Positions 9,466-64,000 of a DNA stretch of 64,000 bases are shown here, piece after piece; position 1 is the first letter of the stretch; each line of letters begins with the position of its first letter. The translations under genes and the position numbers were made by a program. The DNA is from Longimicrobiales bacterium. Its GTDB lineage: Bacteria; Gemmatimonadota; Gemmatimonadetes; Longimicrobiales; Gaopeijiaceae. The notes below the pieces were generated by a model. It was not told the DNA's origin. It made no database searches and saw only the letters and a program-made list of their open reading frames with translations. The DNA lies in the NCBI GenBank assembly GCA_965198065.1, contig CBDAON010000004.1, positions 32,001 to 96,000 on the forward strand, written 5' to 3'.

Positions 9466-10754
9466 ACGGGTCGCCGACCCTCCCCGAATCCGTCCGGATC
9501 GACGGGATCACGTCCGAGGGGGCGGGTGCCGGACGCCTCGCCGACGGCCGGGTCGTGTTCGTCCACCGTTCCGCTCCGGGCGATCGGATTCGGCTGGCGC
9601 TCACGAAAGAGGCTGGGCGGTGGACTCGGGGCCGGCTCGTCGAGGTCGTGGCATCGGGACCCCACCGTCGAGCGGCCCCATGTCCTTACCATGATCGGTG
9701 CGGGGGGTGCACGCTCCAGCACGTCGAGTACTCGGCTCAGCTCGCGGTCAAGGGGAAGGTCGTGACGGACGCCCTCCGGAGGATCGGGGGGCTCGACGCC
9801 ATGCCGGAGCCCGAGCTCAGGGACTCCCCGTCCGAGTGGCGGTACAGGAACCGGGTGACCTTCACGCTCCGCCGGACGGGGGCGAGCGTGACGGCTGGCT
9901 TCCACGCCCTCGAGGACCCCGCTTCGGTCGTGGACGTGGACGAGCGATGCCTCCTGCCAGAGGGTCCGGTCGCCGAGGCGTGGGCCGCGCTCCGCCGGTC
10001 GTGGGGGCCGGAGGCCCGCCACCTGCCCTCGGGAGCGGAGCTTCACCTCACGCTCCGGGCCAACCATCGGGGAGACGTGCTCCTTCTCGTGCGGGGGGGC
10101 CGAGGGCGTGGAAATCCGGAGCTCCTACTCGAGCGCATCCCGCCCGTTCGGGCGATCTGGAAGGCGTTCGGTCGAAAGGGCGGACCTCCCCGTCTCCTGG
10201 CGGGGGCGGAGAGACTCGAGGAGGAGTGGTACGGTGAGCCCCTCGATCTCGTACCAGGGGCCTTCCTGCAGGGGAATCGCGAGGCCGCGAAGCGACTCCA
10301 CGACGCGGTCCTGGGCGAGCTCGGGGAAGTCCGCGGCAAGCGGCTCGTGGATGCGTACTGCGGGTTCGGGCTCTACGGACTCGTCTCCGCAAGGCGAGGC
10401 GCGAGCGCCGTGGGCATCGAATCGGACCCGGCCGGGCTCCAGATGGCCGGCGGCCTCGGGGCCGAGGGGTTCCGCATCCTGGCCGGCACCGTCCAGGAGC
10501 GCTTACCGGACGCGCTTCCCGCCGATCTCGTGGTCGTGAATCCGCCCCGCCGTGGGATTGCGTCAGGCGTCGCGGAGATGCTCGTGACCGGGGTCACGGA
10601 GCGGATCGTGTACGTGAGCTGCGACCCCGCCACTCTGGCCCGGGACGTCCGCCGTCTCCGGGGCGGCTTCGAAATCCGGCGTCTCCAGGTGTTCGACCTG
10701 TTCCCTCAGACGGTGCACGTCGAAGTCGTCCTGACCCTCGACCGCAGCCGGTGA
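9462..10754 (+). CDS. TRAM-domain RNA (uracil-5)-methyltransferase, RlmD/TrmA family; start uncertain (probable CTG)
   Basis: CPYHDRCGGC Fe-S motif, YRNR, FLQGN, DAYCGFG, NPPRRG, YVSCDPATLARD, DLFPQT. Confidence 0.88.
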   Translation: MNGSPTLPESVRIDGITSEGAGAGRLADGRVVFVHRSAPGDRIRLALTKEAGRWTRGRLVEVVASGPHRRAAPCPYHDRCGGCTLQHVEYSAQLAVKGKVVTDALRRIGGLDAMPEPELRDSPSEWRYRNRVTFTLRRTGASVTAGFHALEDPASVVDVDERCLLPEGPVAEAWAALRRSWGPEARHLPSGAELHLTLRANHRGDVLLLVRGGRGRGNPELLLERIPPVRAIWKAFGRKGGPPRLLAGAERLEEEWYGEPLDLVPGAFLQGNREAAKRLHDAVLGELGEVRGKRLVDAYCGFGLYGLVSARRGASAVGIESDPAGLQMAGGLGAEGFRILAGTVQERLPDALPADLVVVNPPRRGIASGVAEMLVTGVTERIVYVSCDPATLARDVRRLRGGFEIRRLQVFDLFPQTVHVEVVLTLDRSR

Positions 10755-10811
10755 CCCGTTAGGTTTCAGCCACGGCCTGACGCAAACGTCGCCGCGAGCA
10801 CGGCAAACCGC

Positions 10812-11162
10812 ATGCCCACGTACGAGTACCGCTGCACCGCCGGTCACGACTTCGATCTCGTCCAGAAGATGTCGGCCGAGCCGCGCGCCAGCTGTCCCGA
10901 ATGCGGCAGTGAGGCACGGCGCCTCCTCTCGGCCGGGGCCGGCCTCCTCTTCAAGGGAGAGGGATTCTACATCACCGACTACCGATCCGATGCCTACCGG
11001 GAGGCTCAGAAGGCTGAGACGAAGGGCGGGGAAGGAGCAAAGCCGGAGGCGAGCAAGGGGAAGGACGCCGGATCCGACGGAGCGAAGCCCTCGAAGCCGA
11101 AGGCCGGCAGCGGAGCCTCCTCGAAGCCGGGGAAGCCGCCCGCTTCGGGCTCATCCCCCTGA
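10812..11162 (+). CDS. FmdB family zinc-ribbon protein
   Basis: MPTYEYRC..GH, CPECG, FKGEGFYITDYR and a low-complexity tail. Confidence 0.9.
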   Translation: MPTYEYRCTAGHDFDLVQKMSAEPRASCPECGSEARRLLSAGAGLLFKGEGFYITDYRSDAYREAQKAETKGGEGAKPEASKGKDAGSDGAKPSKPKAGSGASSKPGKPPASGSSP

Positions 11163-11169
11163 GCGCGGG

Positions 11170-12882
11170 ATGACGCTGGAGCGCGTGCGCGGGCTCGTCG
11201 AAGCAGCCCTCTGCGAGCTCGGGGTCGAGAACGTCGAGGTGCGCCTCGAGCGTCCTCGCGACCCGACGCATGGAGATCTTGCGACCAACGTGGCGCTCTC
11301 CCTCGCGTCCAGGCTCGGTAAGCCTCCTCGTGTCATCGCGCAGACGATCGCCGAACGGATCCCCACCGGGTCGGGGGGCGTCGAGTCCGTCGAGGTCGCG
11401 GGACCAGGGTTCCTGAACTTCCGGATCTCGTCCGCCGCGGTCGGCAGCATCCTGGAGCAGATCCTGGCCGCAGACGAGCGCTGGGGCCGCCTCGAAGTCG
11501 GGCACGGCGAGCGGGTGAACGTGGAGTTCGTGTCCGCGAACCCAACCGGCCTCCTCCACATCGGGCACGGCAGGCAGGCCGCGCTCGGCGACGCCATCGC
11601 CTCGCTCCTGGAGTGGACGGGGTGGTCCGCGTACCGCGAGTTCTACTACAACGACGCGGGCCGCCAGATCGAGCGACTCTCGGAGAGCCTACTGGCGCGC
11701 TATCGCCAGCAGCTTGGGCAGGACGCGGACTTTCCCGAGGACGGCTATCACGGCGACATCGTCGTCGAGCTCGCGAAGGAGCTGATCGAGAAGGAGGGCG
11801 ACCGCTGGCTCAGTGCGGACGAGACGGAGGCACTCGAGCGGATGCGCCGCTACGGGATCTCCCGTCTCCGGGAGGAGCAGGACAGGGACCTCGCGGCCTT
11901 CGGGGTGCGCTTCGATCACTATTTCCTCGAGTCGTCCCTCTACGAGGACGGGCTGGTCGTGGCCACTGTCGAGCGGCTCCGCAAGACCGGCCTTGTCTTC
12001 GATCTCGACGGGGCGGTGTGGCTCCGCACGACCCGATTCGGGGACCAGAAGGACCGCGTGATGGTAAAGTCGGACGGGTCAGCCACGTACTTCCTTCCCG
12101 ACGTTGCCTACCACGTGACAAAGTGGGAGCGCGGCTTCCACCACGCCGTGAACATTCAGGGGGCCGACCATCACGGCACGGTGGCCCGCGTGAGGGCGGG
12201 GCTCCAGGCGCTCGAGCTTCCCGAAGGATACCCGGAGTACGTCCTGCACCAGATGGTCACGGTCGAAGAGGGGGGCCGGGAGGTCAAGTTCTCCAAGCGT
12301 GCCGGCGATTACGTGACCCTCCGGGAGCTCGTGCGGGAGGTCGGCGCGGACGTGACGCGCTACTTCTTCCTCATGCGAAAGCCCGACGGGCACTTGGTCT
12401 TCGATCTGGAGCAGGCCTTGGACCAATCAGACCGGAATCCTGTCTACAAGGTCAAGTACGCCCACGCCCGCATGTGCTCCATCTTCCGGAAGGTGGGGGT
12501 GGACCAGGCCGACGTGGGCCCGGGGTGGGGCGATCCCGCGCTCCTCGTCGAGGAAGGGGAGCGTGAGCTGATCCGCCAGCTCGGGGAGTTTGGGGAGCTT
12601 GTCCGGAAGGCGGCCGAGCTCAGGGCCCCACACCTGGTTTGCGAGTACCTCGACCGGACGGCAGGCGCCGTGAATTCGTGGTATCATGCCGGGAACCCGA
12701 CGAGAGACCCGAGGCTCGCCGTCCTCGTGGATGATCTGGAACTTCGGCGAGCGCGGCTGATGCTCACCCGCGGGGCTCGGGTCGTTCTCCGAAACGGGCT
12801 CCGCCTCCTGGGGCTGGACGCGCCCGAGGCGATGCGGCGGGAGGAGGAGGGAGGGTCTATCCAAGAGCAGGGAAGGGGGTAG
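11170..12882 (+). CDS. argS: Arginine--tRNA ligase
   Basis: EFVSANPTGLLHIGH (HIGH), GADHHG, FSKRAG, YAHARMCSI. Confidence 0.97.
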   Translation: MTLERVRGLVEAALCELGVENVEVRLERPRDPTHGDLATNVALSLASRLGKPPRVIAQTIAERIPTGSGGVESVEVAGPGFLNFRISSAAVGSILEQILAADERWGRLEVGHGERVNVEFVSANPTGLLHIGHGRQAALGDAIASLLEWTGWSAYREFYYNDAGRQIERLSESLLARYRQQLGQDADFPEDGYHGDIVVELAKELIEKEGDRWLSADETEALERMRRYGISRLREEQDRDLAAFGVRFDHYFLESSLYEDGLVVATVERLRKTGLVFDLDGAVWLRTTRFGDQKDRVMVKSDGSATYFLPDVAYHVTKWERGFHHAVNIQGADHHGTVARVRAGLQALELPEGYPEYVLHQMVTVEEGGREVKFSKRAGDYVTLRELVREVGADVTRYFFLMRKPDGHLVFDLEQALDQSDRNPVYKVKYAHARMCSIFRKVGVDQADVGPGWGDPALLVEEGERELIRQLGEFGELVRKAAELRAPHLVCEYLDRTAGAVNSWYHAGNPTRDPRLAVLVDDLELRRARLMLTRGARVVLRNGLRLLGLDAPEAMRREEEGGSIQEQGRG

Positions 12883-31742: not shown

Positions 31743-32777
31743 ATGGCTTCGACGGTGCTGGACCTTCTGACCGGCTCGTACACGCCGCTCTATCTGGCCC
31801 CCCAGGCGGGGGTGAGCGAGTCCCCGTTCCGGCGCCTCTGTCGGCGTTTTGGGGCCGATGTCGTGGTCAGCGAGTTCGTGAGTGCGGACGGGATTTGCCG
31901 GGGGAACGAGCGCACCCTCGGATACCTTCGGTTCGAAGAGGAAGAGCGTCCCATCGGGGTCCAGATCTTCGGATCGGACCCTGCCATGATGGCGGACGCG
32001 GCGATCCTGGTTCACGAAACGTTCGCGCCCGACTTCATCGACATCAACTTCGGGTGCCCGGTCAAGAAGGTGGTGAAGCGCAACGGTGGCTCGGGATGCC
32101 TGAAGGACCTGGGGCTGGTGGCCCGGATCATCCGGAGCGTCGCTGAGGCCACGACCATGACTACGACGGTGAAGATCCGGAGCGGGTTCGACGAGAACAG
32201 CCGGAATCCCGTGCGGATCGGGAGGGTGTGCGAGGAGGCGGGAGCGAGGGCGATCACCCTCCATCCCCGAACCCGTGCGGACATGTACTCCGGGGAGGCT
32301 CGGTGGGAGGAGATCCGTGACCTCAAGGAGGCCGTGGGCATCCCGGTGATCGGGAATGGGGACATCCAGAGTGGTCGGGACGCGGCGCGCATGCGGGACG
32401 AGACCCGGTGTGACGGCATCATGGTGGCGCGTGGCTCTCATGGGGACCCGTGGATCTTCCGGCAGGCCCGGGCCGCGCTCGAGGGGGAGGAGATCCCTCT
32501 CGATCCCGATGCAGCCGAGCGCTTCGGGATCTGCGTGGAGCACGCCGAGAACGCGATCGCTTACGGAGGCGACCTAGAACGGGCTGTCCGCGAGTTCAGA
32601 AAGCACCTGGGCTGGTATACGAAGGGGCTCCCCGGTGGGAAGGATCTCCGGCAGGAGCTCTTCGCCGTCACCTCGCTAGAGCAGGTGAAGGAGCTTCTGA
32701 GCGGTTACCTGGAGCGCCACTCCGCTACACGGGAAGGAGGCCGGGAACCCCGTCCTGCCGAGGCCGTGTTATCTTGA
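31743..32777 (+). CDS. dusB: tRNA-dihydrouridine synthase
   Basis: LAPQAGV, QIFGSDP, DINFGCP, KIRSG, HPRT, GNGDI, RKHLGWY. Confidence 0.93.
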   Translation: MASTVLDLLTGSYTPLYLAPQAGVSESPFRRLCRRFGADVVVSEFVSADGICRGNERTLGYLRFEEEERPIGVQIFGSDPAMMADAAILVHETFAPDFIDINFGCPVKKVVKRNGGSGCLKDLGLVARIIRSVAEATTMTTTVKIRSGFDENSRNPVRIGRVCEEAGARAITLHPRTRADMYSGEARWEEIRDLKEAVGIPVIGNGDIQSGRDAARMRDETRCDGIMVARGSHGDPWIFRQARAALEGEEIPLDPDAAERFGICVEHAENAIAYGGDLERAVREFRKHLGWYTKGLPGGKDLRQELFAVTSLEQVKELLSGYLERHSATREGGREPRPAEAVLS

Positions 32778-53618: not shown

Positions 53619-56600
53619 CTAGATCTCCTCGGTGTCGGGCACGGGTCCCAGGCGCATAAGGAGCTCCCCGGGCGTCACCTCATCCCCCTGACGAACCAGC
53701 ACCTCCTCCACGACTGAGTCACGGGGCGCCGCCACAGCCGTCTCCATTTTCATGGCCTCGGCGATCAGGAGGGGCGCTCCCCGGGGCACGGAATCCCCTG
53801 GATGCACCAGAACCCGAGTGACCTTCCCCGGCATCGTGGCGCCGACCTGCGTCCACTCCCCTGGGTCGGCCTTCGGGCGGAGCAGCGGCGCGTCCGCCAC
53901 CGCCTTCTCGTCCTCGATCCGCACCTCGCGCGCGTGGCCGTTCAGCTCGAAGAGAACGGTCCGCGTCCCGTCGGGTCGCTCCTCTCCCACGGATATGAGT
54001 CGAATGATCAGGACCTTCCCCGGCTCGATCTCGACGGCCACCCGCTCTCCGAGCTCGAGCCCGTAGAAGAACGTCGGCGTGTCGAGCACGGACGTGTCCC
54101 CATACTCGCTCCGATGCTCCACGAACGACCGAAAGACGTCCGGGAAGAGGATGGAGCTCAGGACATCACGGTCGGTGACCTCCCGGGGCACCGCGTCACC
54201 GGCCGTGAGGATCCGGATGTTCTCCCGGATGGGCTCGAAGTCGACCTGGGAAAGGAAGGCGCCCGGGCGATCCGAGAGCGGCTCCTCGCCCTTGAGCACG
54301 GCCGCCTGAAGCTCCATCGGAAACCCGTACGGCGGACGTCCGAGCCGGCCCTTGAGAAGCCCGACGACGGAATCCGGGAAGATGAGCTCCGGTGCCCGGG
54401 CCAGAAGGGTCTCGCCGGTGAGCTCGTTTTGGACCATGAAGAGGGCCAGATCCCCCACGGCTTTGGACGACGGCGTGACCTTGATCAGCTCGCCCAAGAG
54501 GGCGTCGGCCTCCCCGTAGGCGCGGACGACCTCGCGCCAGCGTGTCTTGAAGCCCAGGGCCGCTGCCTGCTGTTTCAGGTTCGTGAACTGACCGCCCGGA
54601 ACCTGGTGGCGGTAAACGCCAGCGTCGGGATGCACGGGGCCACCCTCGAGAAACCCGTAGTATGCCCTCACGGCAGCCCAGTAGTCCTCGAGAGGCTGCA
54701 CAGCGTCCAGGTCGAGCGTGGGCTCCCGCTCCGTTCCGCGAAGCGCGGCGGCGATTGCCCGGAGGCTCGGCTGTGACGTTCCCCCGGCCAGCGCGTCGAT
54801 GCAGCCGTCCACGACGTCGGCTCCGGCGAGAGCCGCCCTGGCGGCGGTGGCGACTCCCACTCCGGCGCTGTCGTGCGTGTGGAGGTGCACCGGGATGCCG
54901 ATGGCCTCCTTCAGGGCGCTGACCAGCCGGTGGGCTGCCTCCGGCTTCAGGAGGCCCGCCATGTCCTTGATCCCCAGAATGTGCGCCCCCGCACCCTCGA
55001 GCTCGCGTGCCAGGTCCACGTAATAGCTCAGGTCGTACTTCTTTCGGCCCTTCTCCAGGAGGTCACCCGTGTAGCAAAGGGCCACCTCCGCCACCTTCCC
55101 CTCTGCCCTCACGGCGTCAATTGCGACGCGCATATTGGGGAGCCAGTTCAGGGAATCGAAGATCCGGAAGATGTCGACCCCCGCTGCGGCCGCCTCCCGC
55201 ACGAACGCCCGAACCACGTTGTCCGGGTACGCCGAGTACCCAAGCAGGCTCTGCCCCCGGAGGAGCATCTGGAGGAGGACGTGGGGGATCTTCTCCCGGG
55301 TGGCCGCAAGCCTCTCCCACGGATCTTCCTTGAGGAAGCGGTAGGCCGTATCGAAGGTGGCACCGCCCCAGACCTCCATCGAGAACAGGTCCGCTGCGAG
55401 CCGCCCGGTCGCCTCCGCGATCCGAAGGAGATCCGCGCTCCGCATGCGGGTGGCAAGGAGGGACTGGTGGGCATCCCGGAACGTCGTGTCGGTGAGGACG
55501 ACCGGCCCATGGGCGAGCAGGCGATCCGAGAGGGCCTCCGGCCCCCGCTCGTCCAGGCATGTCTTCAGGGTGTCCGCCGGCGGCCGCCAATCGGGTCGAA
55601 AGGCCGGCACGGGAACGGGTCTGAACGCGGGCTTCTGGCGGGCTCGGGGGCCGCCTTCCTGACCGTTCACGACGATGCGCCCGATGTAACGCAGCAGGCG
55701 AGTCCCCCGATCCTTCCGCGGCCGGAAGTCGAAGAGCTCTTCGTGATCCTCGACGAACCCGGTGTCCACCCGCCCCGCGAGGAAGTCCGGGTGGGTGACG
55801 ACGTTCTCGAGGAAGGGGATGTTCGTCTTCACCCCCCGAATCCGGAACTCCGCGAGGGCCCGGTGCATCTTCTGCGCCGCGTCCTCGAAGCGGAGCGCGG
55901 TCGTGCACACCTTCACGAGAAGCGAGTCGTAGTGCGGGCTAATGTAGGCCCCCGAGAACGCGGTCGCTCCATCCAGCCGCACGCCGAAGCCGCCCGGTGA
56001 TCGGTAGTGCGCGATCCGTCCAGCGTCCGGAAGGAAGTCGCGCTCCGGGTCCTCCGTCGTCACACGGCATTGGATCGCGAACCCCCTCGCATCCGGGATC
56101 GGGTCCGGCAGGCCCGCGCTCGCGAGATCGTGCCCTTCAGCGATCCGGATCTGCGCCTGCACGATATCCACGCCCAGCACCAGCTCCGTGACCGTGTGCT
56201 CGACCTGAATGCGGGGGTTCACTTCGATAAAGTGGAAGGCGCCCGGTTCCTCGACGAGGAACTCGACCGTGCCCGCCCCACGGTATCTGGTGCCGTCCAT
56301 GAGCGTCTTGGCCGCCGCGCAGACCGCGCGTTGGATCTCTTCCGAGAGCCCGACCGCCGGTGCGACCTCGATCACCTTCTGGTGCCGGCGTTGAATGGAG
56401 CAGTCCCGTTCCCAGAGGTGCTCGATCTGTCCCGCGGCGTCCCCGAGCACCTGTACCTCGATGTGCCGGGGGCGCTGGAGGAAGCGTTCCAAGTAGACGG
56501 TGCCGTCTCCGAACGACGCCTCCGCCTCTCGCCGGGCCACCGGAAAGACAGTCTCGAGCTCCGCCGGGTCCCGAGCCACACGCATCCCGCGTCCCCCACC

Positions 56601-57095
56601 TCCCGCCGCCGCCTTCACGATCACGGGAAAGCCCGCGCTCCTGGCGAAGGCCAGCGCCTCCTCCGCCGTGTCCACCCGATCATCGGTTCCGGGAAGCGTG
56701 GGTACGCCCCGCGAGCGGGCCAGCTCGCGAGCGCGGAGCTTGTCCCCGAAGAGCTCGAGGTGCTCTGGGGACGGCCCGATGAACGCCAGGCCCTCCTCCG
56801 CGCAACGCCGGGCGAACGCCGGGTTTTCTGCGAGGAACCCGTACCCCGGATGGATGGCATCTACCCGACGCTCGACCGCGAGCGCCAGGATCGCCTCGAT
56901 GTTCAGGTACGACTCGACCGGCCCACCCGCATGCTGGAGGAGGTAGGCCTCGTCCGCCTTGTATCGGTGGAGAGCGAGGGAGTCCTCCTCGCTGTAGATC
57001 GCGACGGTGCGCTTGCCGAGCTCCGTGCAGGCGCGGAAAACCCGAATGGCGATCTCGCCGCGATTCGTGACGAGGACGCGACGAAAGTCCTTCAC
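53619..57095 (-). CDS. pyc: Pyruvate carboxylase
   Basis: NRGEIA, HPGYGFL, RDCSIQRRHQK, RDAHQSL, KDMAG, HTHD, EAMKME biotinylation site. Confidence 0.97.
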   Translation of the reverse strand: MKDFRRVLVTNRGEIAIRVFRACTELGKRTVAIYSEEDSLALHRYKADEAYLLQHAGGPVESYLNIEAILALAVERRVDAIHPGYGFLAENPAFARRCAEEGLAFIGPSPEHLELFGDKLRARELARSRGVPTLPGTDDRVDTAEEALAFARSAGFPVIVKAAAGGGGRGMRVARDPAELETVFPVARREAEASFGDGTVYLERFLQRPRHIEVQVLGDAAGQIEHLWERDCSIQRRHQKVIEVAPAVGLSEEIQRAVCAAAKTLMDGTRYRGAGTVEFLVEEPGAFHFIEVNPRIQVEHTVTELVLGVDIVQAQIRIAEGHDLASAGLPDPIPDARGFAIQCRVTTEDPERDFLPDAGRIAHYRSPGGFGVRLDGATAFSGAYISPHYDSLLVKVCTTALRFEDAAQKMHRALAEFRIRGVKTNIPFLENVVTHPDFLAGRVDTGFVEDHEELFDFRPRKDRGTRLLRYIGRIVVNGQEGGPRARQKPAFRPVPVPAFRPDWRPPADTLKTCLDERGPEALSDRLLAHGPVVLTDTTFRDAHQSLLATRMRSADLLRIAEATGRLAADLFSMEVWGGATFDTAYRFLKEDPWERLAATREKIPHVLLQMLLRGQSLLGYSAYPDNVVRAFVREAAAAGVDIFRIFDSLNWLPNMRVAIDAVRAEGKVAEVALCYTGDLLEKGRKKYDLSYYVDLARELEGAGAHILGIKDMAGLLKPEAAHRLVSALKEAIGIPVHLHTHDSAGVGVATAARAALAGADVVDGCIDALAGGTSQPSLRAIAAALRGTEREPTLDLDAVQPLEDYWAAVRAYYGFLEGGPVHPDAGVYRHQVPGGQFTNLKQQAAALGFKTRWREVVRAYGEADALLGELIKVTPSSKAVGDLALFMVQNELTGETLLARAPELIFPDSVVGLLKGRLGRPPYGFPMELQAAVLKGEEPLSDRPGAFLSQVDFEPIRENIRILTAGDAVPREVTDRDVLSSILFPDVFRSFVEHRSEYGDTSVLDTPTFFYGLELGERVAVEIEPGKVLIIRLISVGEERPDGTRTVLFELNGHAREVRIEDEKAVADAPLLRPKADPGEWTQVGATMPGKVTRVLVHPGDSVPRGAPLLIAEAMKMETAVAAPRDSVVEEVLVRQGDEVTPGELLMRLGPVPDTEEI

Positions 57096-57124
57096 GTTGG
57101 CGCCGGCAAGGACCCCTCGGGCGC

Positions 57125-58138
57125 TCAGAAGATGGCGAGCGGGTTCAGGGGAGAGCCTGTGGCTCCCGGAACGGCGAGCGGAGCGGCCACGAGCAGGAAC
57201 TCCCAACGCTGATGCTCTTGCGCGGCCGCGGCCAGCGCCTCGAGGTCCAGGTTGTCGAACAGGGGAAGCCCCATGGCCACCAGGGCGAGCTGGTGGATCG
57301 GCATCGAGACGCCTTCCACGCCTGAGGGGAGCACGTCGTTCGTGTAGTCACTGCCGAGCACGGCGACCTGACGCTGGTGAAGCCACGCTGCGACCGACGC
57401 GTGCAGCCCCGCGGCGAGGCGGCCGGTGGCCCAGGGACCCTCGACGTCGCGGCGCGCCCACCGACCGCTTCGGATCAACACGACGTCCCCGCTCCGGATG
57501 GTGATTCCGGTCTCGGCCTCCCAGGCCTCCAGGTCTTGCACGAGGATCGGTGTGCCGGGCTCGAGATAGTCCAGCCCCCGAAGGCGCGCGACGTCGACCA
57601 GGACTCCCCGTGTGACGATCCCGCTCTTGGCCGCAGTAATGGCCAGGCGTCCACAGCCGTTGTCCTGATCGTAGGCGTCTCTCGAGAAGCCGTTGTACAT
57701 GATGCCCTGGCTTGCCATGTGGCACAGCGCATCCAGGTGGCTGTGCGCATATCCGTGATACGACACCTCGAACCGGTCGCTCACGAACGAGCCAGCCCCC
57801 GTGCTGAGGAGCTCGTGCCCGAAGGGTGAGGTCGCGTCGGCAGCCTCCTCCTTGATGTAGTCGTGGGACAGGGACACCGAGACCCCCGTCCGAACCAGCC
57901 GCGTGGCCGCGACGCTCACCTGGGGCGTAATGAAGTTCAGGGTCCCCCGCTCGTCGGCGCGCCCCCAGCGACCCGCGTTCGAGAGCTCCACCATCCAGCG
58001 CTCGACAGTCTCGCTCGTGACCGCGGGCGGCTCCTGCGCCCGGGCCGGAGAGAGGGGGATCGTGGCCGCGAGGGCCAGGAAGGCGACCGCTCCGATGGAC
58101 GGGGAACGTCCCGTCCGCTCCTCCCATCGAGTGCTCAT
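57125..58138 (-). CDS. Cyclase / kynurenine formamidase-like metallohydrolase with a signal peptide
   Basis: RWG.DERGTLN, HSHLDALCH, RGVLVD, GATGSPLNPLA. Confidence 0.88.
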   Translation of the reverse strand: MSTRWEERTGRSPSIGAVAFLALAATIPLSPARAQEPPAVTSETVERWMVELSNAGRWGRADERGTLNFITPQVSVAATRLVRTGVSVSLSHDYIKEEAADATSPFGHELLSTGAGSFVSDRFEVSYHGYAHSHLDALCHMASQGIMYNGFSRDAYDQDNGCGRLAITAAKSGIVTRGVLVDVARLRGLDYLEPGTPILVQDLEAWEAETGITIRSGDVVLIRSGRWARRDVEGPWATGRLAAGLHASVAAWLHQRQVAVLGSDYTNDVLPSGVEGVSMPIHQLALVAMGLPLFDNLDLEALAAAAQEHQRWEFLLVAAPLAVPGATGSPLNPLAIF

Positions 58139-58311: not shown

Positions 58312-58989
58312 TCAGGCCATTCCCCCGAGGTAAAGGAAGAACACCCATTTCGCGAGGGTGAGGGCAAGCCAGACCGTGCCCACGGAGACGAGGGCGGCGC
58401 GGAGCGGAAGTCCCGGTCCGTTCTCGAGCGCGAGGATGAAGATGCCCGCCCACGCCAGATCGAATACGGAGACCTGGGTGGCGAGGAGGTACACCGCTCC
58501 CGGAACGTCGCTCCCCAACCTGAGCAGGCCGGCCAGGGAGCCCGGTAGCTCTTGGGGCAGTCCCTGAAGAAGCGCGGCGGGAGGGAGCCCGGCCAGCCAG
58601 TGCGTCTGGACGATGCTGCCCGCCAGGAGGGCGAAATGGGCCCATAGGGCCGCGCGAAAGATCCGTCCGATCGGAGGGTTTCGGATCCACGGGAGGAGCG
58701 CGAGCTGGACGATGAGGGACACGAGCCCTGCTCGTACGACGACTCCGACGGGCGCGAGCAGGTAGGTCAGGCGCTCCCACCGGCGGGCCGCCTCGACACC
58801 TGCTGATCCGGCCCCAAGGAGGGCGGGGAAGAGGTCGTCCCCGATCACGATCCGGTTCATGTACGCCACCGAGGCTACCTGGAGGCCAGCCATTAGGACC
58901 ACGAGCTGCCAGGTGAGGAGCCGGGGCGCCGTGGAGGCGTCCGCGTCCGGCGCGCGAAGGTCGTCCGACCCGTCAGGCCCCGCGGTCAC
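58312..58989 (-). CDS. Yip1-like multi-pass membrane protein at the end of the bacteriocin-like cluster
   Basis: About 5 hydrophobic helices; start overlaps the PCAT 3' end; family call is by architecture only. Confidence 0.6.
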   Translation of the reverse strand: MTAGPDGSDDLRAPDADASTAPRLLTWQLVVLMAGLQVASVAYMNRIVIGDDLFPALLGAGSAGVEAARRWERLTYLLAPVGVVVRAGLVSLIVQLALLPWIRNPPIGRIFRAALWAHFALLAGSIVQTHWLAGLPPAALLQGLPQELPGSLAGLLRLGSDVPGAVYLLATQVSVFDLAWAGIFILALENGPGLPLRAALVSVGTVWLALTLAKWVFFLYLGGMA

Positions 58990-60882
58990 CGTGGCTCCTC
59001 ACCTGAACGGGGACGTTACGAACAAGCTGGCGGATCTCGCCAGGACGGCCCTCGCCCCTGACCCGTCCGGCCTCGAGCAGGTAGACGTGGTCGGATCGAT
59101 CAAGAACGTGGGCATCGTGGGACACGACCAGCACCGCGTGTCCGACCGCATATGCAGTCAGCGCCTCCATCAGCACAGTGGCCAGCCGCCCGTCGATGGC
59201 ACCGAGCGCCTCGTCCACGAGGAGCACCTCCGGCGTGGTGGCCACGGCCCTGAGGAAGCCGACGATCTGCCGCTCGCCGCCGGACAGGCGTCGGCCGTCC
59301 TCACCCACCCGGGTGTCCCATCCGGCCGGGAAGCGGGTGAGGAAAGAGGCCAGCCCGAAGCCCGCGGCCCAGGCCGTGAGCCCATTCAGGCGTTCCGGAT
59401 CGCGACCGAGCAGGACGTTGTGACCCAACGTCCCGCGAAAGATTCGCGGGCTGCCGGGGCAGAGGGCGATGCGCTTCCGGTACTCTCCGAGCGCGTACTC
59501 CTCGGCCGGCGCGCCGTCCACCAGCAGGCGCCCCGCGGTGAGCGGGATGAGCCGCGCCAGGGCCCGCATCAGGGTGGTCTTGCCGGCGCCGTTCGGGCCG
59601 AATAACGCCGTGAGCCGGCCGCGGGAGACCACGAGGTCGATCCCTTCCAGCACGGGACGCCCCGGGGGCCACTCGACCGTGGCGTCCCTCAGCCGGAGCT
59701 CTCGCGTGACCCGGAGTGGCGTCCGCCCCCCTTCGAGCGTCTCGGGCCGGGCCAGGACCACGTCGAGGAGCCGGTGGGCCGATACCGACGCCTCCTGGAA
59801 GGTCCCCACGGCACCCACGAGACGGTCAGCGGAAGGAAGCATCCCCCCGAGAAGGGAATAGCCGGCCACTAACTCGCCCAGTCGCAGGGTCCCTGAGTCG
59901 CCACGTGGCCCCGAGAAGAAGAGTCACGTAGACGGGAACCGCGGCGAGCGCCAGCACCGCCAGGGGCGGAGCGAGGACGGCGAGGAGCACGAGGGATCCG
60001 GCAACCACGAGGCCGTCGATGATGACCGTCCCGAGCATCTCCGCAAGCGGCGTCCTGAACCCGGACCGCCTCGGCTAGGCGGACCGTGACGTCGCCGGTC
60101 GCGCGACTCTCGAAGAACCGGAGGGGGAGCCGGAAGAGGCGCGCGAGAAAGTCCTGATTCATCCGGCTGCTCACGGCGCACTGAAGTGAGATCAGAAGCC
60201 CTCTACGCACATGGCCCAGGAACGTGCGGAGGACGAGCAGCGCCAGCAGGAGCTCGCCCGTCGCCGCGATCATGAGCGGGTCCCCCTCGGGGATGAACCG
60301 GTCGATGATCTGCTGGACACAGAGAGCCGTCACGAGCCCCAGGGCCGTGCCCGTGGCCCCGAGAAAGACGGACTGGACGATCCAGGCGCCGTGGCCACGG
60401 GCGTACCCCGCCAGCCATGGGATCCAGCTTCCCGGGGGCGCCCGGCGGAGCTGGGCCGTGGGCTCGAGGAGCAGAGCCGCGCGGCTGGTCCAGAGACGCT
60501 CCATCTCCCGGCGCTGCAGGGTCTTTGGGCCCGCCGACGGGTCTCCTAGGGAGACTCGATGCGCATCCGCGTTCCACCAGACCGCGTAGTGCGCGTCACC
60601 CTCGCTCGAGGTGAGGTGAACAATGCACGGGAAAGGCTGACGGGAGACCACCTCGTCGTACGAGCCGCGAACGCCTCGCGCCTCGAATCCGAGGGCCTCC
60701 GCGGCCCGTTTGAGCCCCCAGAGGGTCGTCCCCTGCGCATCGGTGAGCGCGAGCTCCCGTACCTCGACCAGGCTCGTATCGCCGCCCCAGTAGCGGAGGA
60801 TCGTGAGCAGGGAAGCGGGCCCGCAGTCCGTCGGCTCATGCTGCCGAACGAGAGGGCGCCGCCTAGGGAAGACGCGGATCAC
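58973..60882 (-). pseudogene. C39 peptidase-containing ABC transporter (PCAT), frameshifted with an apparent internal deletion
   Basis: QHEPTDCGPA (Cys), AHY (His), GDP (Asp); TMD FFESRATGD; NBD GPNGAGKT, LSGGERQ, LLVDEA; spread over three ORFs with breaks near 60048 and 59890. Confidence 0.9.
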
Positions 60883-61628
60883 GGGCCTCCTCCCGTGATC
60901 CGCAGGAAGACGTCCTCAAGAGCCTCGCTCCCGTCGGTTCCGTGCCGTTGGCGGAGCTCGTCCGGCGTACCCTCGAACCGGAGCGCCCCGTCGTGGAGGA
61001 TCGCCAGCCGATCCGCGAGACCCTCCACGATCTCGAGCACGTGTGTGGTAAAGAGGACGGCCCGCCCGCGGTCACGCATAGAGATCACGGTCTCCTTCAC
61101 CCGGCGTGCGCTGGCCACATCCAGTGTGTTGGTGGGCTCGTCTAGGATGAGGACCTCCGGCTCGTGCACTGTCGCGGCAAGGAACGCGACCTGCTTTCGC
61201 ATGCCCGCCGAGTAGGTCCGGATCGGGGCGTCTGCGACCTCTGCCAGCCCGAAGGTCTGGATCCCTCGCTCAATTGCCGCCGCCCGCTCGGACCGTACGC
61301 CGCGCAGCTCGAGGATGAACTCCAGGAGCTCCCGGCCCGTCAGCTGCGGATAGAGCACGGGAGTCTCGGGCAGGTATCCAACGCGTCTGCGGGCCCGATG
61401 GATTTCCGAGGAGCGGAGGCTCGATCCCAGGATCCGGGCGTCCCCGGATGTCGGGTTTCGGAGTCCCATCAGGAGGTGCAGGGTCGTCGTTTTGCCCGCT
61501 CCATTCCGCCCCAGGAGGCAGATGCACGTGGCGGGGGGCAACGTGAATGTGAGGCGGTCCACCGCCGCCCGGGCACCGTAGCGCTTGGTCAGCCCGACGG
61601 TCTCGATCGGGATGGGTTGAGGCGTCAA
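60879..61628 (-). CDS. ABC exporter ATP-binding protein (TTG start overlapping the permease stop)
   Basis: GRNGAGKTT, YSAGMRK, LILDEPT, TTHVLE, LEDVFLRIT. Confidence 0.92.
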   Translation of the reverse strand: MTPQPIPIETVGLTKRYGARAAVDRLTFTLPPATCICLLGRNGAGKTTTLHLLMGLRNPTSGDARILGSSLRSSEIHRARRRVGYLPETPVLYPQLTGRELLEFILELRGVRSERAAAIERGIQTFGLAEVADAPIRTYSAGMRKQVAFLAATVHEPEVLILDEPTNTLDVASARRVKETVISMRDRGRAVLFTTHVLEIVEGLADRLAILHDGALRFEGTPDELRQRHGTDGSEALEDVFLRITGGGP

Positions 61629-63335
61629 GGCTCCATCCGGTTCGACCACGGGAGCGCCCATCCTGCCAGGAGTGTCGCCCCGCCACCTACGCACACGACT
61701 AGCACCCCCACCACGGCGCTGAGATGAGCGCCCGAGAGCGCGCCGGCACTCTTGAGGGATCGGGCGACCAGGTAGATGGAACCCGTCGCGCCGCCCACCA
61801 TCGCGTAGAGCGTCTTCGCGGCGAGGGAGGCACCGGGCGGCACCCCACCGCCCCGCTCGAGGCCCGGCAGAAGGAATCCGAGCGAGGTCCCGAGGATGGA
61901 GAAGAGAAGGCCTGCTGCGACCGCCTCCGCCGCGAGGAGGGGGACGTCGGGCGCCGGGAGGCCCACCGCCCGCCCGCCGAGAAGCACGAGCACGACGTAC
62001 GCGACGGCGTGACTGACGCCGAAGAGGGCGGCGCCCAGGACCTTGCCCTGGAATAGCCTGGCCGGGGACACAAGAGGCCGGAGAAGCGCGATGCCCTCGC
62101 CTTCCTCCCCGAGGGAGCCGAGGGAGCGCCCAGCCGCGGTCCATCCGACTCCGAACAGAAGGGCGGCCTCGAAGGCGAGAGTGTGGCCGGGACCCGACTG
62201 CGGGCCCCCGAGTCGGGATGCCACGACCAGTCCCGCGAGCAGTGCGGCCACGGGGATCACCTGGCCCTGGAGGTAGGAGAGCGGATCCCGCCGCACGGGA
62301 AGAGCCACGTCCTTCGTCCAGAAGAGGCGAGCGATCGTGGCGCCCGCGGGCCACGCGCCACCCAGCCGCCCGAGTGCCGAGAAGGCGCTGACATAGCGGG
62401 GAACGCGGATGGCGTGCAGATCGATCGGGAGGTCGGCCAGGGCGCTCCCCCTCCACCGCCAGACGGCCCGGCCGGCCAGCGCCGCCGCCAGCGTGGCGGT
62501 CCCCCCCCAGGTAAGGGTCACCCACCACGCTCCGCGGCCGATCGAGTCGGCCACCGCCGCCGGAGCCTGAAGGAGGTAGAGCCAGCGTGGGCCCGCGAGC
62601 CCGAGAGCGGCTACCCAACGCGGCGCCTGATCGAGCAGGACCGTCGGGAGGACCACGAACAGGGGGAATGTCAGGAGGAAAGGCACGATCGTGAGCCGCT
62701 GGATGCGCCCGGCGCGCGCTCCTGCGCCGGTGCCGACAATGACGGCCCGGAGCACCGCCGCGACGAGCGCGCCGAGCGCTCCGGACCAGGCCAGAGCCGT
62801 GGTCCCGTGGCCGATCAGCGTCCAGCCGGGCGCAGGCCCCACCCCGACGAGGAGATGAAAGTGGAACAGGTAGAAAGAACGCCCAGAGATAGAGCGAGAT
62901 CAGCGCGATCGACTCCGCTACTGCGAGAGCGGCGAGGTCCGGTAGGACCCACGGGTGAGCGAGGAGGGGATCGTCATGCCGCCCGAGCACCAACCCCTTC
63001 AATAGCTGGGCCACCAGCATGACCACGAAGCACGCGGTCAACCCCACGTGCGCGAGGATCAGCGCACCCCAGCGGGAGGGCTCATCGAGGTCACCGCGCC
63101 CGAGGCCCCAGTCGCCCCGAGCAAGGTGCCAGACGGACGGCACGGCCAGGGCCCGTGACTAGTAGCATGACGCGCCCCTGGAGCGTTCCAAAGGCTTTGT
63201 CCACGAGGTCACGGGCCCCGATTCGGTACCTCCCCAGCGCGCGAGACAGAGAAACCGAGCCAGCGCGGGGTCGCCGGACGCCGGAGTCCTCCGCCAGGCG
63301 ACCCCTGCGTCGGGCCTCGGGGGCCGCCCGCTCAC
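61625..63335 (-). pseudogene. Large polytopic ABC-exporter-type permease with frame disruptions
   Basis: C-terminal part 61625-62870 (ARLFWTKD..RRDP, SLGEEG..LLRP..GK); N-terminal TMs in another frame to 63143; probable true start GTG 63335 overlapping the precursor-2 stop. Confidence 0.7.
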
Positions 63336-63535
63336 CGGAAGCGGGCCAGCCCCACTCTCGGCGAGGTCGCGGCGGCCAGCGTGCACGCCACCAGAGTTTT
63401 GTTCACGGTCAGAAGAAACCCCGTGACCCCGTAGAGCATGGTCGCGGCGATCGACACACCGAGCGTGACGCCGCACGTGGTCCACCCCACTCCGGCCGAG
63501 ATCCGCTCCATTTCGATTCTCCGGAGCTCGCTCAT
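63332..63535 (-). CDS. Bacteriocin-like precursor peptide 2 (67 aa, double-glycine-type leader)
   Basis: MSELRRIEMERISAG leader (ELxxxEMxxIxAG); hydrophobic core with Cys21/Cys51; ATG overlaps the precursor-1 stop. Confidence 0.82.
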   Translation of the reverse strand: MSELRRIEMERISAGVGWTTCGVTLGVSIAATMLYGVTGFLLTVNKTLVACTLAAATSPRVGLARFR

Positions 63536-63738
63536 CGCATCCCCCCCAGGACCCGGGACCGGAATGCGGTCACGCACGAAAGGAGGCCGCCCCCGTAAGC
63601 AATGAGTGCGATCTTGCTCAGAGGATCAGGTTGTAGCGCCAGGTAGAAGGAGGAGACGATGCCGAGCCCGCAGGCGACCCCGGACCAGAAGCCGTCGCCG
63701 GCCAGACCCGTCATCTCGGGGTGTGTCAACTCCGTCAT
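63532..63738 (-). CDS. Bacteriocin-like precursor peptide 1 (68 aa, double-glycine-type leader)
   Basis: SD AAGGAGG; MTELTHPEMTGLAG leader; core with GxxxGxxxG and Cys23/Cys55. Confidence 0.85.
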   Translation of the reverse strand: MTELTHPEMTGLAGDGFWSGVACGLGIVSSFYLALQPDPLSKIALIAYGGGLLSCVTAFRSRVLGGMR

Positions 63739-63753
63739 GGTTTGCCCTCCTTC

Positions 63754-64000
63754 TCACGGATCCCGAGCTAGGTACTCGAAGGAGCGGGGTCCGACGCTCC
63801 CCCGGGTGCGCTCCGGGCCCACCGGAACGCGCCCGAAGGATTCATGGCGTCGGGGTGCCCGACCATGGCCGGATCGGCCTTCGGTGTACCGACCGAGGAG
63901 TGGAGGTCGAGCGGGGGGCGATGCGGGAACGGGGGTGGCGTCGTGCACCCGCGCCGTTGAAATTCCCTCCCGGAACTGCCCGGGCCCACGCGCGACGATG
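63754..64000 (-). other. Possible 3' end of an upstream cluster gene entering from beyond the window
   Basis: Minus-strand frame open from 63999 to TGA at 63754, ending just before the precursor SD; no recognisable motif. Confidence 0.25.

Follow-up and report, generated by a model that had tools for sequence, protein, structure and literature searches.

The window analysed here, i.e. the 64,000 nucleotides at positions 32,001 to 96,000 of contig CBDAON010000004.1 from a Longimicrobiales bacterium (assembly GCA_965198065.1, genome G000 in our comparisons), carries near its end a cassette of six co-oriented genes on the minus strand. The genes run from 63738 to 58312 and encode, in this order, two small precursor peptides (A and B), a permease, an ATPase, a peptidase-containing ATP-binding cassette (ABC) transporter (PCAT) and a Yip1-like membrane protein. 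Consecutive genes share their stop and start codons, with ATGA at the junction of peptides A and B, GTGA between peptide B and the permease, TTGA between the permease and the ATPase, GTGA between the ATPase and the PCAT, and an overlap of 17 nucleotides between the PCAT and the Yip1-like gene. The initial annotation, made from the letters of the window, had read this set as a single operon for a two-peptide bacteriocin, and we recovered all five junctions as it gave them. The individual features are the following:

63746..63752, minus strand: AAGGAGG ribosome-binding site of peptide A (sequence)
63532..63738, minus strand: peptide A precursor, 68 residues, open frame (sequence; homologs by profile)
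63332..63535, minus strand: peptide B precursor, 67 residues, open frame (sequence)
61625..63335, minus strand: ABC exporter permease, pseudogene in the window (ortholog comparison; model of the ortholog at L053 and its fold match)
60879..61628, minus strand: ABC ATPase of the DrrA/NodI type, 249 residues, open frame (TIGR01188, E 4.7e-53, below the cut-off of that model)
58973..60882, minus strand: PCAT (C39 domain, membrane domain and ATPase), pseudogene in the window (domain match; ortholog alignment)
59887..59888, minus strand: junction of a 260-nucleotide deletion in the PCAT membrane domain (contigs of sequencing runs X3, X4 and X5; ortholog gap)
58312..58989, minus strand: Yip1-like helical membrane protein, 225 residues, open frame, candidate immunity protein or accessory subunit

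In the window, peptide A has a 15-residue leader of the double-glycine type, with Gly at position -2 and Asp at -1, and a core with Cys23, Cys55, a GxxxG motif and a central PDP turn; peptide B also has a 15-residue leader, with Ala at -2 and Gly at -1, and a core with Cys21, Cys51 and GxxxG. Set beside the common consensus of double-glycine leaders, the two leaders, earlier described as being of an ELxxxEMxx[IL] type, indeed read L(-12)...E(-8)M(-7)..L/I(-4).G/A(-2). A profile of peptide A yielded 42 matches at E<=0.001 among representatives at 50% identity, of which 32 were aligned together with six genomic copies, and six long repeat proteins and four partial matches were left out. The leaders of the homologs are mostly 15 residues long, hydrophobic at -12, -7 and -4, and have Gly at -2 in 38/38 A and 22/24 B peptides. 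Two cysteines lie near the ends of the core in 37/38 A and 24/24 B peptides, at a spacing of mostly 31-32 residues (A) or 29 residues (B). GxxxG is present in 37/38 A and 24/24 B peptides, counts that come from Gly-rich cores and without a shuffle control. The cores measure 44-53 residues and are hydrophobic, with a mean hydropathy of 1.1-1.2 and few charges, and in the middle of most A cores lies a Pro-Asp/Glu-Pro turn, a feature that would suit a helical hairpin.

The two peptides form a constant pair of distinct types. Each of the 20 loci compared encodes one peptide of type A and one of type B, whose order varies, and the best match of every A and every B peptide (20/20 each) is a peptide of its own type; mean similarity over these loci is 0.35 for A with A, 0.23 for B with B and 0.06 for A with B. 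The correlation between A and B similarities (rho 0.68) was dropped as evidence for co-evolution because it reflects shared ancestry. Likewise, Asp at -1 of the window's peptide A was considered as a sign of decay and rejected, since intact carriers have Glu there. Known families give little to hold on to: neither peptide has a Pfam or NCBIfam match at cut-off, a search of PDB sequences with both peptide profiles returned nothing below E 0.03, and PF10439 (Bacteriocin_IIc) is matched at E<=0.05 by 2/38 A and 3/24 B peptides, the window's own two not among them. The ESM Atlas clusters nearest to peptide A are named bacteriocins (0.87-0.89), and these serve as leads only.

Some loci depart from this plan. 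In six A-type proteins (P0010, P0021, P0022, P0028, P0030 and P0049) a stretch resembling a Sec signal, recognised by eye, precedes the leader, and at L103 (30-637) both precursors have such a stretch and are followed by the cassette permease, on a contig too short for a PCAT to show. Elsewhere there are three peptide genes, the extra one being a duplicate of B that has diverged in L043 (11903-12061), L058 (4687-4842) and L106 (7338-7493), and a second A in L096 (3181-3372). In genome G570, Arg replaces the second cysteine of peptide A (L097, 7825-8016), yet all six frames are open.

The transporter next to the peptides has the C39, membrane and ATPase domains of a PCAT. Its C39 domain (PF03412, E 2.7e-29) has Gln14, Cys20, His98 and Asp114, in agreement with the Cys/His/Asp triad noted before, and is the sole C39 found in this genome. 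The PCAT frame is whole in orthologs such as those at L053 and L043. A C39 domain search matched 58/401 genomes of the phylum, and three of the 10 top regions inspected hold the same six genes, one of them in another order; the initial annotation had proposed conservation of the peptide genes beside homologous PCATs as a check, and related genomes do show it. Other PCAT loci in the Gemmatimonadota (L044, 6624-10359; L048, 6036-10801; L049, 1240-6007) consist of one or two peptides with acidic leaders, a 290-residue membrane protein, an HlyD-like gene and a PCAT, so that HlyD-like genes do accompany PCATs in this phylum, with different peptides.

In the case of the permease, whose orthologs are about 550-570 residues long, no Pfam match was obtained in 13 orthologs, and the fold was approached by a model of the L053 ortholog (pLDDT 81, pTM 0.54). 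Residues 305-550 of this model align with CcmB (Z 14.9, root-mean-square deviation 4.3, 215 residues aligned), PmtD (Z 14.2, deviation 3.9, 216 aligned) and ABCG1 (Z 13.8), and the first 13 rows all have the type V exporter fold. The C-terminal half is therefore predicted to have the fold of type V ABC exporters (PmtD/CcmB/ABCG), the N-terminal half being barely covered. Foldseek at E<=0.001 gave no match for this model (weak rows only), nor for that of the Yip1-like protein, which is a helical membrane protein in its model (pLDDT 84). The label 'Yip1-like' itself holds in part: one ortholog adjoins an ESM Atlas cluster that is 54% PF04893 (score 0.94), and none of 12 orthologs has a Pfam match, PF04893 included. 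The Yip1-like model had no Foldseek match in the PDB and its profile found nothing below E 0.03 among PDB sequences. SpoIIM/DUF95 was matched at E 0.05 in Pfam by none of the 13 permeases and 12 Yip1-like proteins, and NCBIfam likewise returned no match at cut-off for the permease or the Yip1-like protein.

Counting each genome once, 21 Gemmatimonadota genomes have all six genes together. In 10 of these all six frames are open (G125, G570, G621, G622, G677, G678, G682, G688, G706 and G717) and in 11 there is a break (G000, G036, G197, G272, G592, G623, G641, G643, G665, G673 and G695). Assembly errors may account for some of the 10 breaks seen in genomes other than G000, because the frameshift control on flanking genes is too noisy (13 frame changes in 96 flank matches, some of them artefacts). 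Not counted among the 21 are L052, L057/L058 and the metagenome loci (their contigs end within the cassette), G649, G670 and G018 (partial or different) and G558 (a remnant); genomes G037, G056 and G212 entered the search tallies and control query pools only. The peptide A profile matched 20/401 genomes of the order and 18/256 of the same family, the latter figure speaking for more than a chance occurrence. The Yip1-like profile matched 21/300 family genomes, largely those with peptide A, and the permease profile 4/401 genomes of the phylum, every one a cassette carrier. The closest syntenic loci are labelled Gemmatimonadetes and Longimicrobiales, which bears out the Gemmatimonadota setting assumed at the outset. 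One is labelled Gammaproteobacteria and one, a 2-kb contig, Chloroflexota; both lie close to Gemmatimonadota sequences and are probably mislabelled.

Plasmid searches with the permease, the Yip1-like protein and peptide A gave no match, viral contigs gave two short weak matches, and a DNA search of 60 relatives returned fragments with ABC motifs only. Matches at L059, L060, L109 and in G514 were rejected as not being this cassette; at L099 (G514:C10:2761-5830 and 10488-11336) nine short peptides with double-glycine leaders and without cysteines, three of them near-identical repeats, lie near a response regulator and represent a different system. A relative with a genome of 1.8 Mb retains a stop-containing Yip1-like remnant beside lspA (L126, G558:C8:38848-39066), the other cassette genes being gone from that site. 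L125 (G670:C38:47803-53380) has a Yip1-like gene, a PCAT and an ATPase, but neither of the peptides and not the permease profile found a match there; it may represent a sister cassette for different cargo. In three genera (L086-L090, L095 and L098) the cassette lies close to a PfaD-like gene paired with a type I polyketide synthase gene, as labelled by eye.

Beyond position 64000 come lspA on the opposite strand, a CNNM-family gene and then an MlaEFD-like set (from reading of translations and tblastn). The earlier statement that no modifying enzyme, HlyD or TolC is visible thus holds for the genes that follow the end of the window as well. Downstream on the same strand, 53619-58127 of the window contains what by eye reads as a cyclase-like gene and as an unbroken pyruvate carboxylase gene; both are ordinary neighbours and recur in L085 and L100. 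Consensus scans found no sigma-70-like promoter, and no terminator 3' of the last cassette gene.

The initial annotation was right about the presence and order of the six genes and did not report that two of them are no longer intact. The permease of the window spans four frames, with extra bases near 63232, 63152 and 62874. The PCAT spans three, with an extra base near 60049 and the 260-nucleotide deletion at 59887/59888, by which about 87 residues of the membrane domain are absent relative to the orthologs. The window copy can make neither its own PCAT nor a full permease. We compared these lesions with the contigs of seven of 15 public sequencing runs. The contigs of X1 are identical to the window; this run is perhaps the source sample and hence not independent. 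X3, X4 and X5, from two other studies and about 99% identical, are longer by 260 letters at 59887/59888 and show none of the extra bases at 60049, 62874 and 63232, and their PCAT frame is therefore whole at, by arithmetic, about 722 codons. X8 and X9, from a fourth study and of a depth of about 4, carry the window alleles at 60049, 62874, 63152 and 63232. X11 shares two frameshifts with the window; its pieces break off in loose letters where the deletion lies, suggesting a later origin of the deletion. None of the compared strains is clean: the 63152 frameshift persists in X3 and X4, X5 shows indels of its own in the permease (62129) and the ATPase (61136), and X8 has one at 60272.

That the window cassette is in fact intact and its frameshifts and deletion are errors of assembly is the least probable of the explanations considered here. 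Several of the extra bases do fall within short homopolymer runs, X1 may be no independent witness, and the X8/X9 contigs are shallow; nevertheless, contigs from another study carry the alleles at 60049, 62874, 63152 and 63232, X3/X4 also carry that at 63152, and in a control of the 26 G000 genes with a homolog of at least 50% among the retrieved loci the PCAT alone is split, as opposed to 0/25 of the others. The lesions are real alleles, confirmed by the public contigs. Among the differences between strains (at least 44; 42 of the 44 listed could be classed) 25 are synonymous and 17 non-synonymous, a ratio of about 0.27 per site: the cassette genes were formerly under purifying selection and are now decaying.

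In terms of anatomy, the closest known relatives are gallocin A and brochocin C, together with thermophilin 13 and ABP-118, the disulfide-hairpin subgroup of class IIb bacteriocins (PMC10100652); gallocin A requires both peptides as well as the disulfides for its activity (PMC10100652), and GxxxG is described as a feature of class IIb two-peptide bacteriocins (PMC2850506). The subgroup shares with the cassette two different adjacent precursors, double-glycine leaders and export by a PCAT (PMC10100652), as well as long, weakly charged cores (42 and 60 residues there) with two cysteines near the ends. It differs in its Gram-positive producers, a small immunity peptide (GIP) encoded after the pair, and a helper resembling thioredoxin plus a two-component regulator in the locus, whereas the cassette has a diderm host, a type V exporter with a Yip1-like gene in their place, and no Pfam match at cut-off. 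The match to the gallocin A/brochocin C subgroup is one of anatomy and not of sequence, and the pair is a candidate member, which would act by synergy.

Other known systems resemble the cassette in part. Class II microcins of the MccV type have Gram-negative producers, a double-glycine signal, a PCAT, disulfides in some cases and a small membrane immunity protein (up to 216 residues, compared with 225 for the Yip1-like protein), but they are single peptides that leave via PCAT, membrane fusion protein and TolC, whereas the peptides of the cassette are a fixed pair and no gene for a membrane fusion protein goes with them (PMC12219008). The PmtCD/AbcA exporters of the S. aureus phenol-soluble modulins likewise are two ABC exporters for hydrophobic peptides, PmtCD protecting cells from amphipathic peptides, and the fold predicted for the C-terminal half of the permease is that of PmtD; their substrates, however, are single amphipathic helices, and the match covers less than half of the 550-residue permease at 10% identity (PMC9974410). 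A Yip1-type protein next to an ABC transporter, in the setting of a peptide toxin, also occurs in YknWXYZ of Bacillus (PMC4887032) and in circular and leaderless bacteriocin clusters (PMC8659200), where Yip1 genes are common (PMC8659200, PMC11580447). The partners of YknW, however, are a MacB-type permease and a membrane fusion protein (PMC4887032) and the circular clusters carry SpoIIM/DUF95 (PMC8659200), none of which was found in the cassette.

Taken together, we consider it probable, by analogy, that the cassette encodes a two-peptide bacteriocin pair resembling gallocin A, and that in this genome it is likely inactive because PCAT and permease are broken. The earlier proposal of a two-peptide system would then stand as regards peptides that are co-encoded beside a PCAT, carry double-glycine leaders, are unmodified and are probably closed by disulfides; it fails for the window copy as a working unit. 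In an intact cassette, A and B would be made from one translationally coupled operon, whose overlaps are seen at the junctions and whose output may be 1:1. The PCAT would cut after residue 15 and move the cores across the inner membrane, as the C39 triad and the leader consensus suggest. In the periplasm the two cysteines of each core would join and so close it as a helical hairpin, a step modelled on the cysteine spacing and on gallocin A, after which A and B may pair through their GxxxG faces and permeabilise the target membrane. The type V exporter of predicted fold and the Yip1-like protein would pull the hydrophobic peptides from the producer's own inner membrane, which would serve both release and immunity, a role we infer from PmtCD and YknW. 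Killing, synergy, cleavage, disulfides and membrane activity of A and B are thus put forward by analogy from the gene sequences. More tentatively still, a two-step route can be envisaged in which the PCAT, or Sec in the signal-bearing variant, delivers the cores no further than the periplasm and the type V exporter with its Yip1-like partner lifts the assembled A/B pair from the inner membrane without a type I channel, a proposal that we hold doubtful.

Several observations weigh against the bacteriocin interpretation. At the level of the peptides, residue -1 is highly variable (Gly, Glu, Ala, Ser, Asp, Thr and Arg; also Ile, Met and Leu), the window's peptide B has Ala at -2, and no peptide reaches the PF10439 cut-off of 27.1 bits (best 18.2 bits, E 0.0025). 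As for the exporter, Z values below about 13 can arise by chance for helical proteins, and the best rows of the permease are barely higher. The cassette contains no membrane-fusion or TolC gene and one HlyD query remained unmatched in 33 loci; since class II microcins use such a protein, exit through the outer membrane is unexplained. A membrane fusion protein encoded elsewhere may act in trans, the seven PF13437 matches of G000 all being far from the cassette and its outer-membrane efflux genes also lying elsewhere. Nor is there a small immunity gene: the stop of peptide B overlaps the permease start, so that no small open reading frame fits between them, and the Yip1-like gene or the exporter may serve as immunity instead. 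No DsbB or VKOR match was obtained in G000 (88% complete), and among intact carriers DsbB is found in 3/5 and VKOR in 0/5. Finally, unlike many mobile weapons, the cassette keeps to one position next to lspA in several of the genera.

The last points could also be read as signs that the pair is not a weapon at all, i.e. that A and B form a small membrane complex or signal resident in the envelope, which the type V exporter, together with the Yip1-like protein, would place and recycle. The missing membrane-fusion, TolC and small immunity genes, the fixed chromosomal site, the nearly uncharged cores and the Sec-like signals on both precursors of the variant, which point to the periplasm as first destination, would all suit this. 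We nevertheless regard it as rather unlikely, as the patchy spread (18/256 family genomes), the breakage in 11/21 carriers and the fast divergence of the cores fit a dispensable conflict system, and no sensor or regulator gene travels with the cassette at the inspected loci. Nor does any modifying-enzyme gene, which bears on the idea of a ribosomally synthesised peptide that is modified, or cyclised head to tail, by enzymes acting from elsewhere. The combination of Yip1, a large membrane protein and an ATPase does recall circular-bacteriocin clusters (PMC8659200, PMC11580447), and 4/38 A peptides weakly match a daptide precursor model (best E 0.0017); the scanned cassette proteins, however, have no SpoIIM/DUF95 match, the cores lack the C-terminal Thr that is invariant in daptides, and the loci lack their decarboxylase, aminotransferase and methyltransferase (PMC10036551), so that we judge this reading improbable. 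Slightly more improbable to us is that secreted peptides assemble by themselves into fibres or the scaffold of a matrix, in the way reported for microcins of Acinetobacter (PMC13188072): the hydrophobic, Gly/Ala-rich cores would allow it, but a homopolymer agrees less well than a defined pair of hairpins with the strict A plus B pairing and the conservation of the cysteine spacing.

As a unit, the cassette is apparently undescribed. No description was found in the titles and abstracts listed for Gemmatimonadota bacteriocins and Longimicrobiales ribosomal peptides, and no paper turned up on Yip1/C39 bacteriocins or on Gram-negative class IIb systems with a C39 peptidase, though supplementary mining tables (e.g. 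of PMC12648112) could list the peptides; the words 'Gemmatimonad' and 'two-peptide' do not occur in the main text of PMC12219008, and the microcin, lasso and Nif11-type clusters of marine Gemmatimonadota described in PMC11316326 do not include it. New with respect to the systems above are the diderm host, the lack of membrane-fusion/TolC and small immunity genes, the second ABC exporter with a fold predicted to be PmtCD-like, and the variant with Sec-like signals.

The disulfide-hairpin two-peptide bacteriocins described in the cited papers come from Gram-positives, and the 20 natural A/B pairs, whose Gram-negative phylum is for the most part uncultured, are short enough for synthesis and for cross-tests of partner specificity. 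The cassette also offers a clean genetic setting for the function of bacterial Yip1-like proteins, which PMC11580447 and PMC8659200 leave open, and it poses the question by which way the substrate of a PCAT gets out of a diderm cell when no membrane fusion protein is at hand. Of less weight is the window copy itself, which presents a peptide system that is being lost by several routes within one species.

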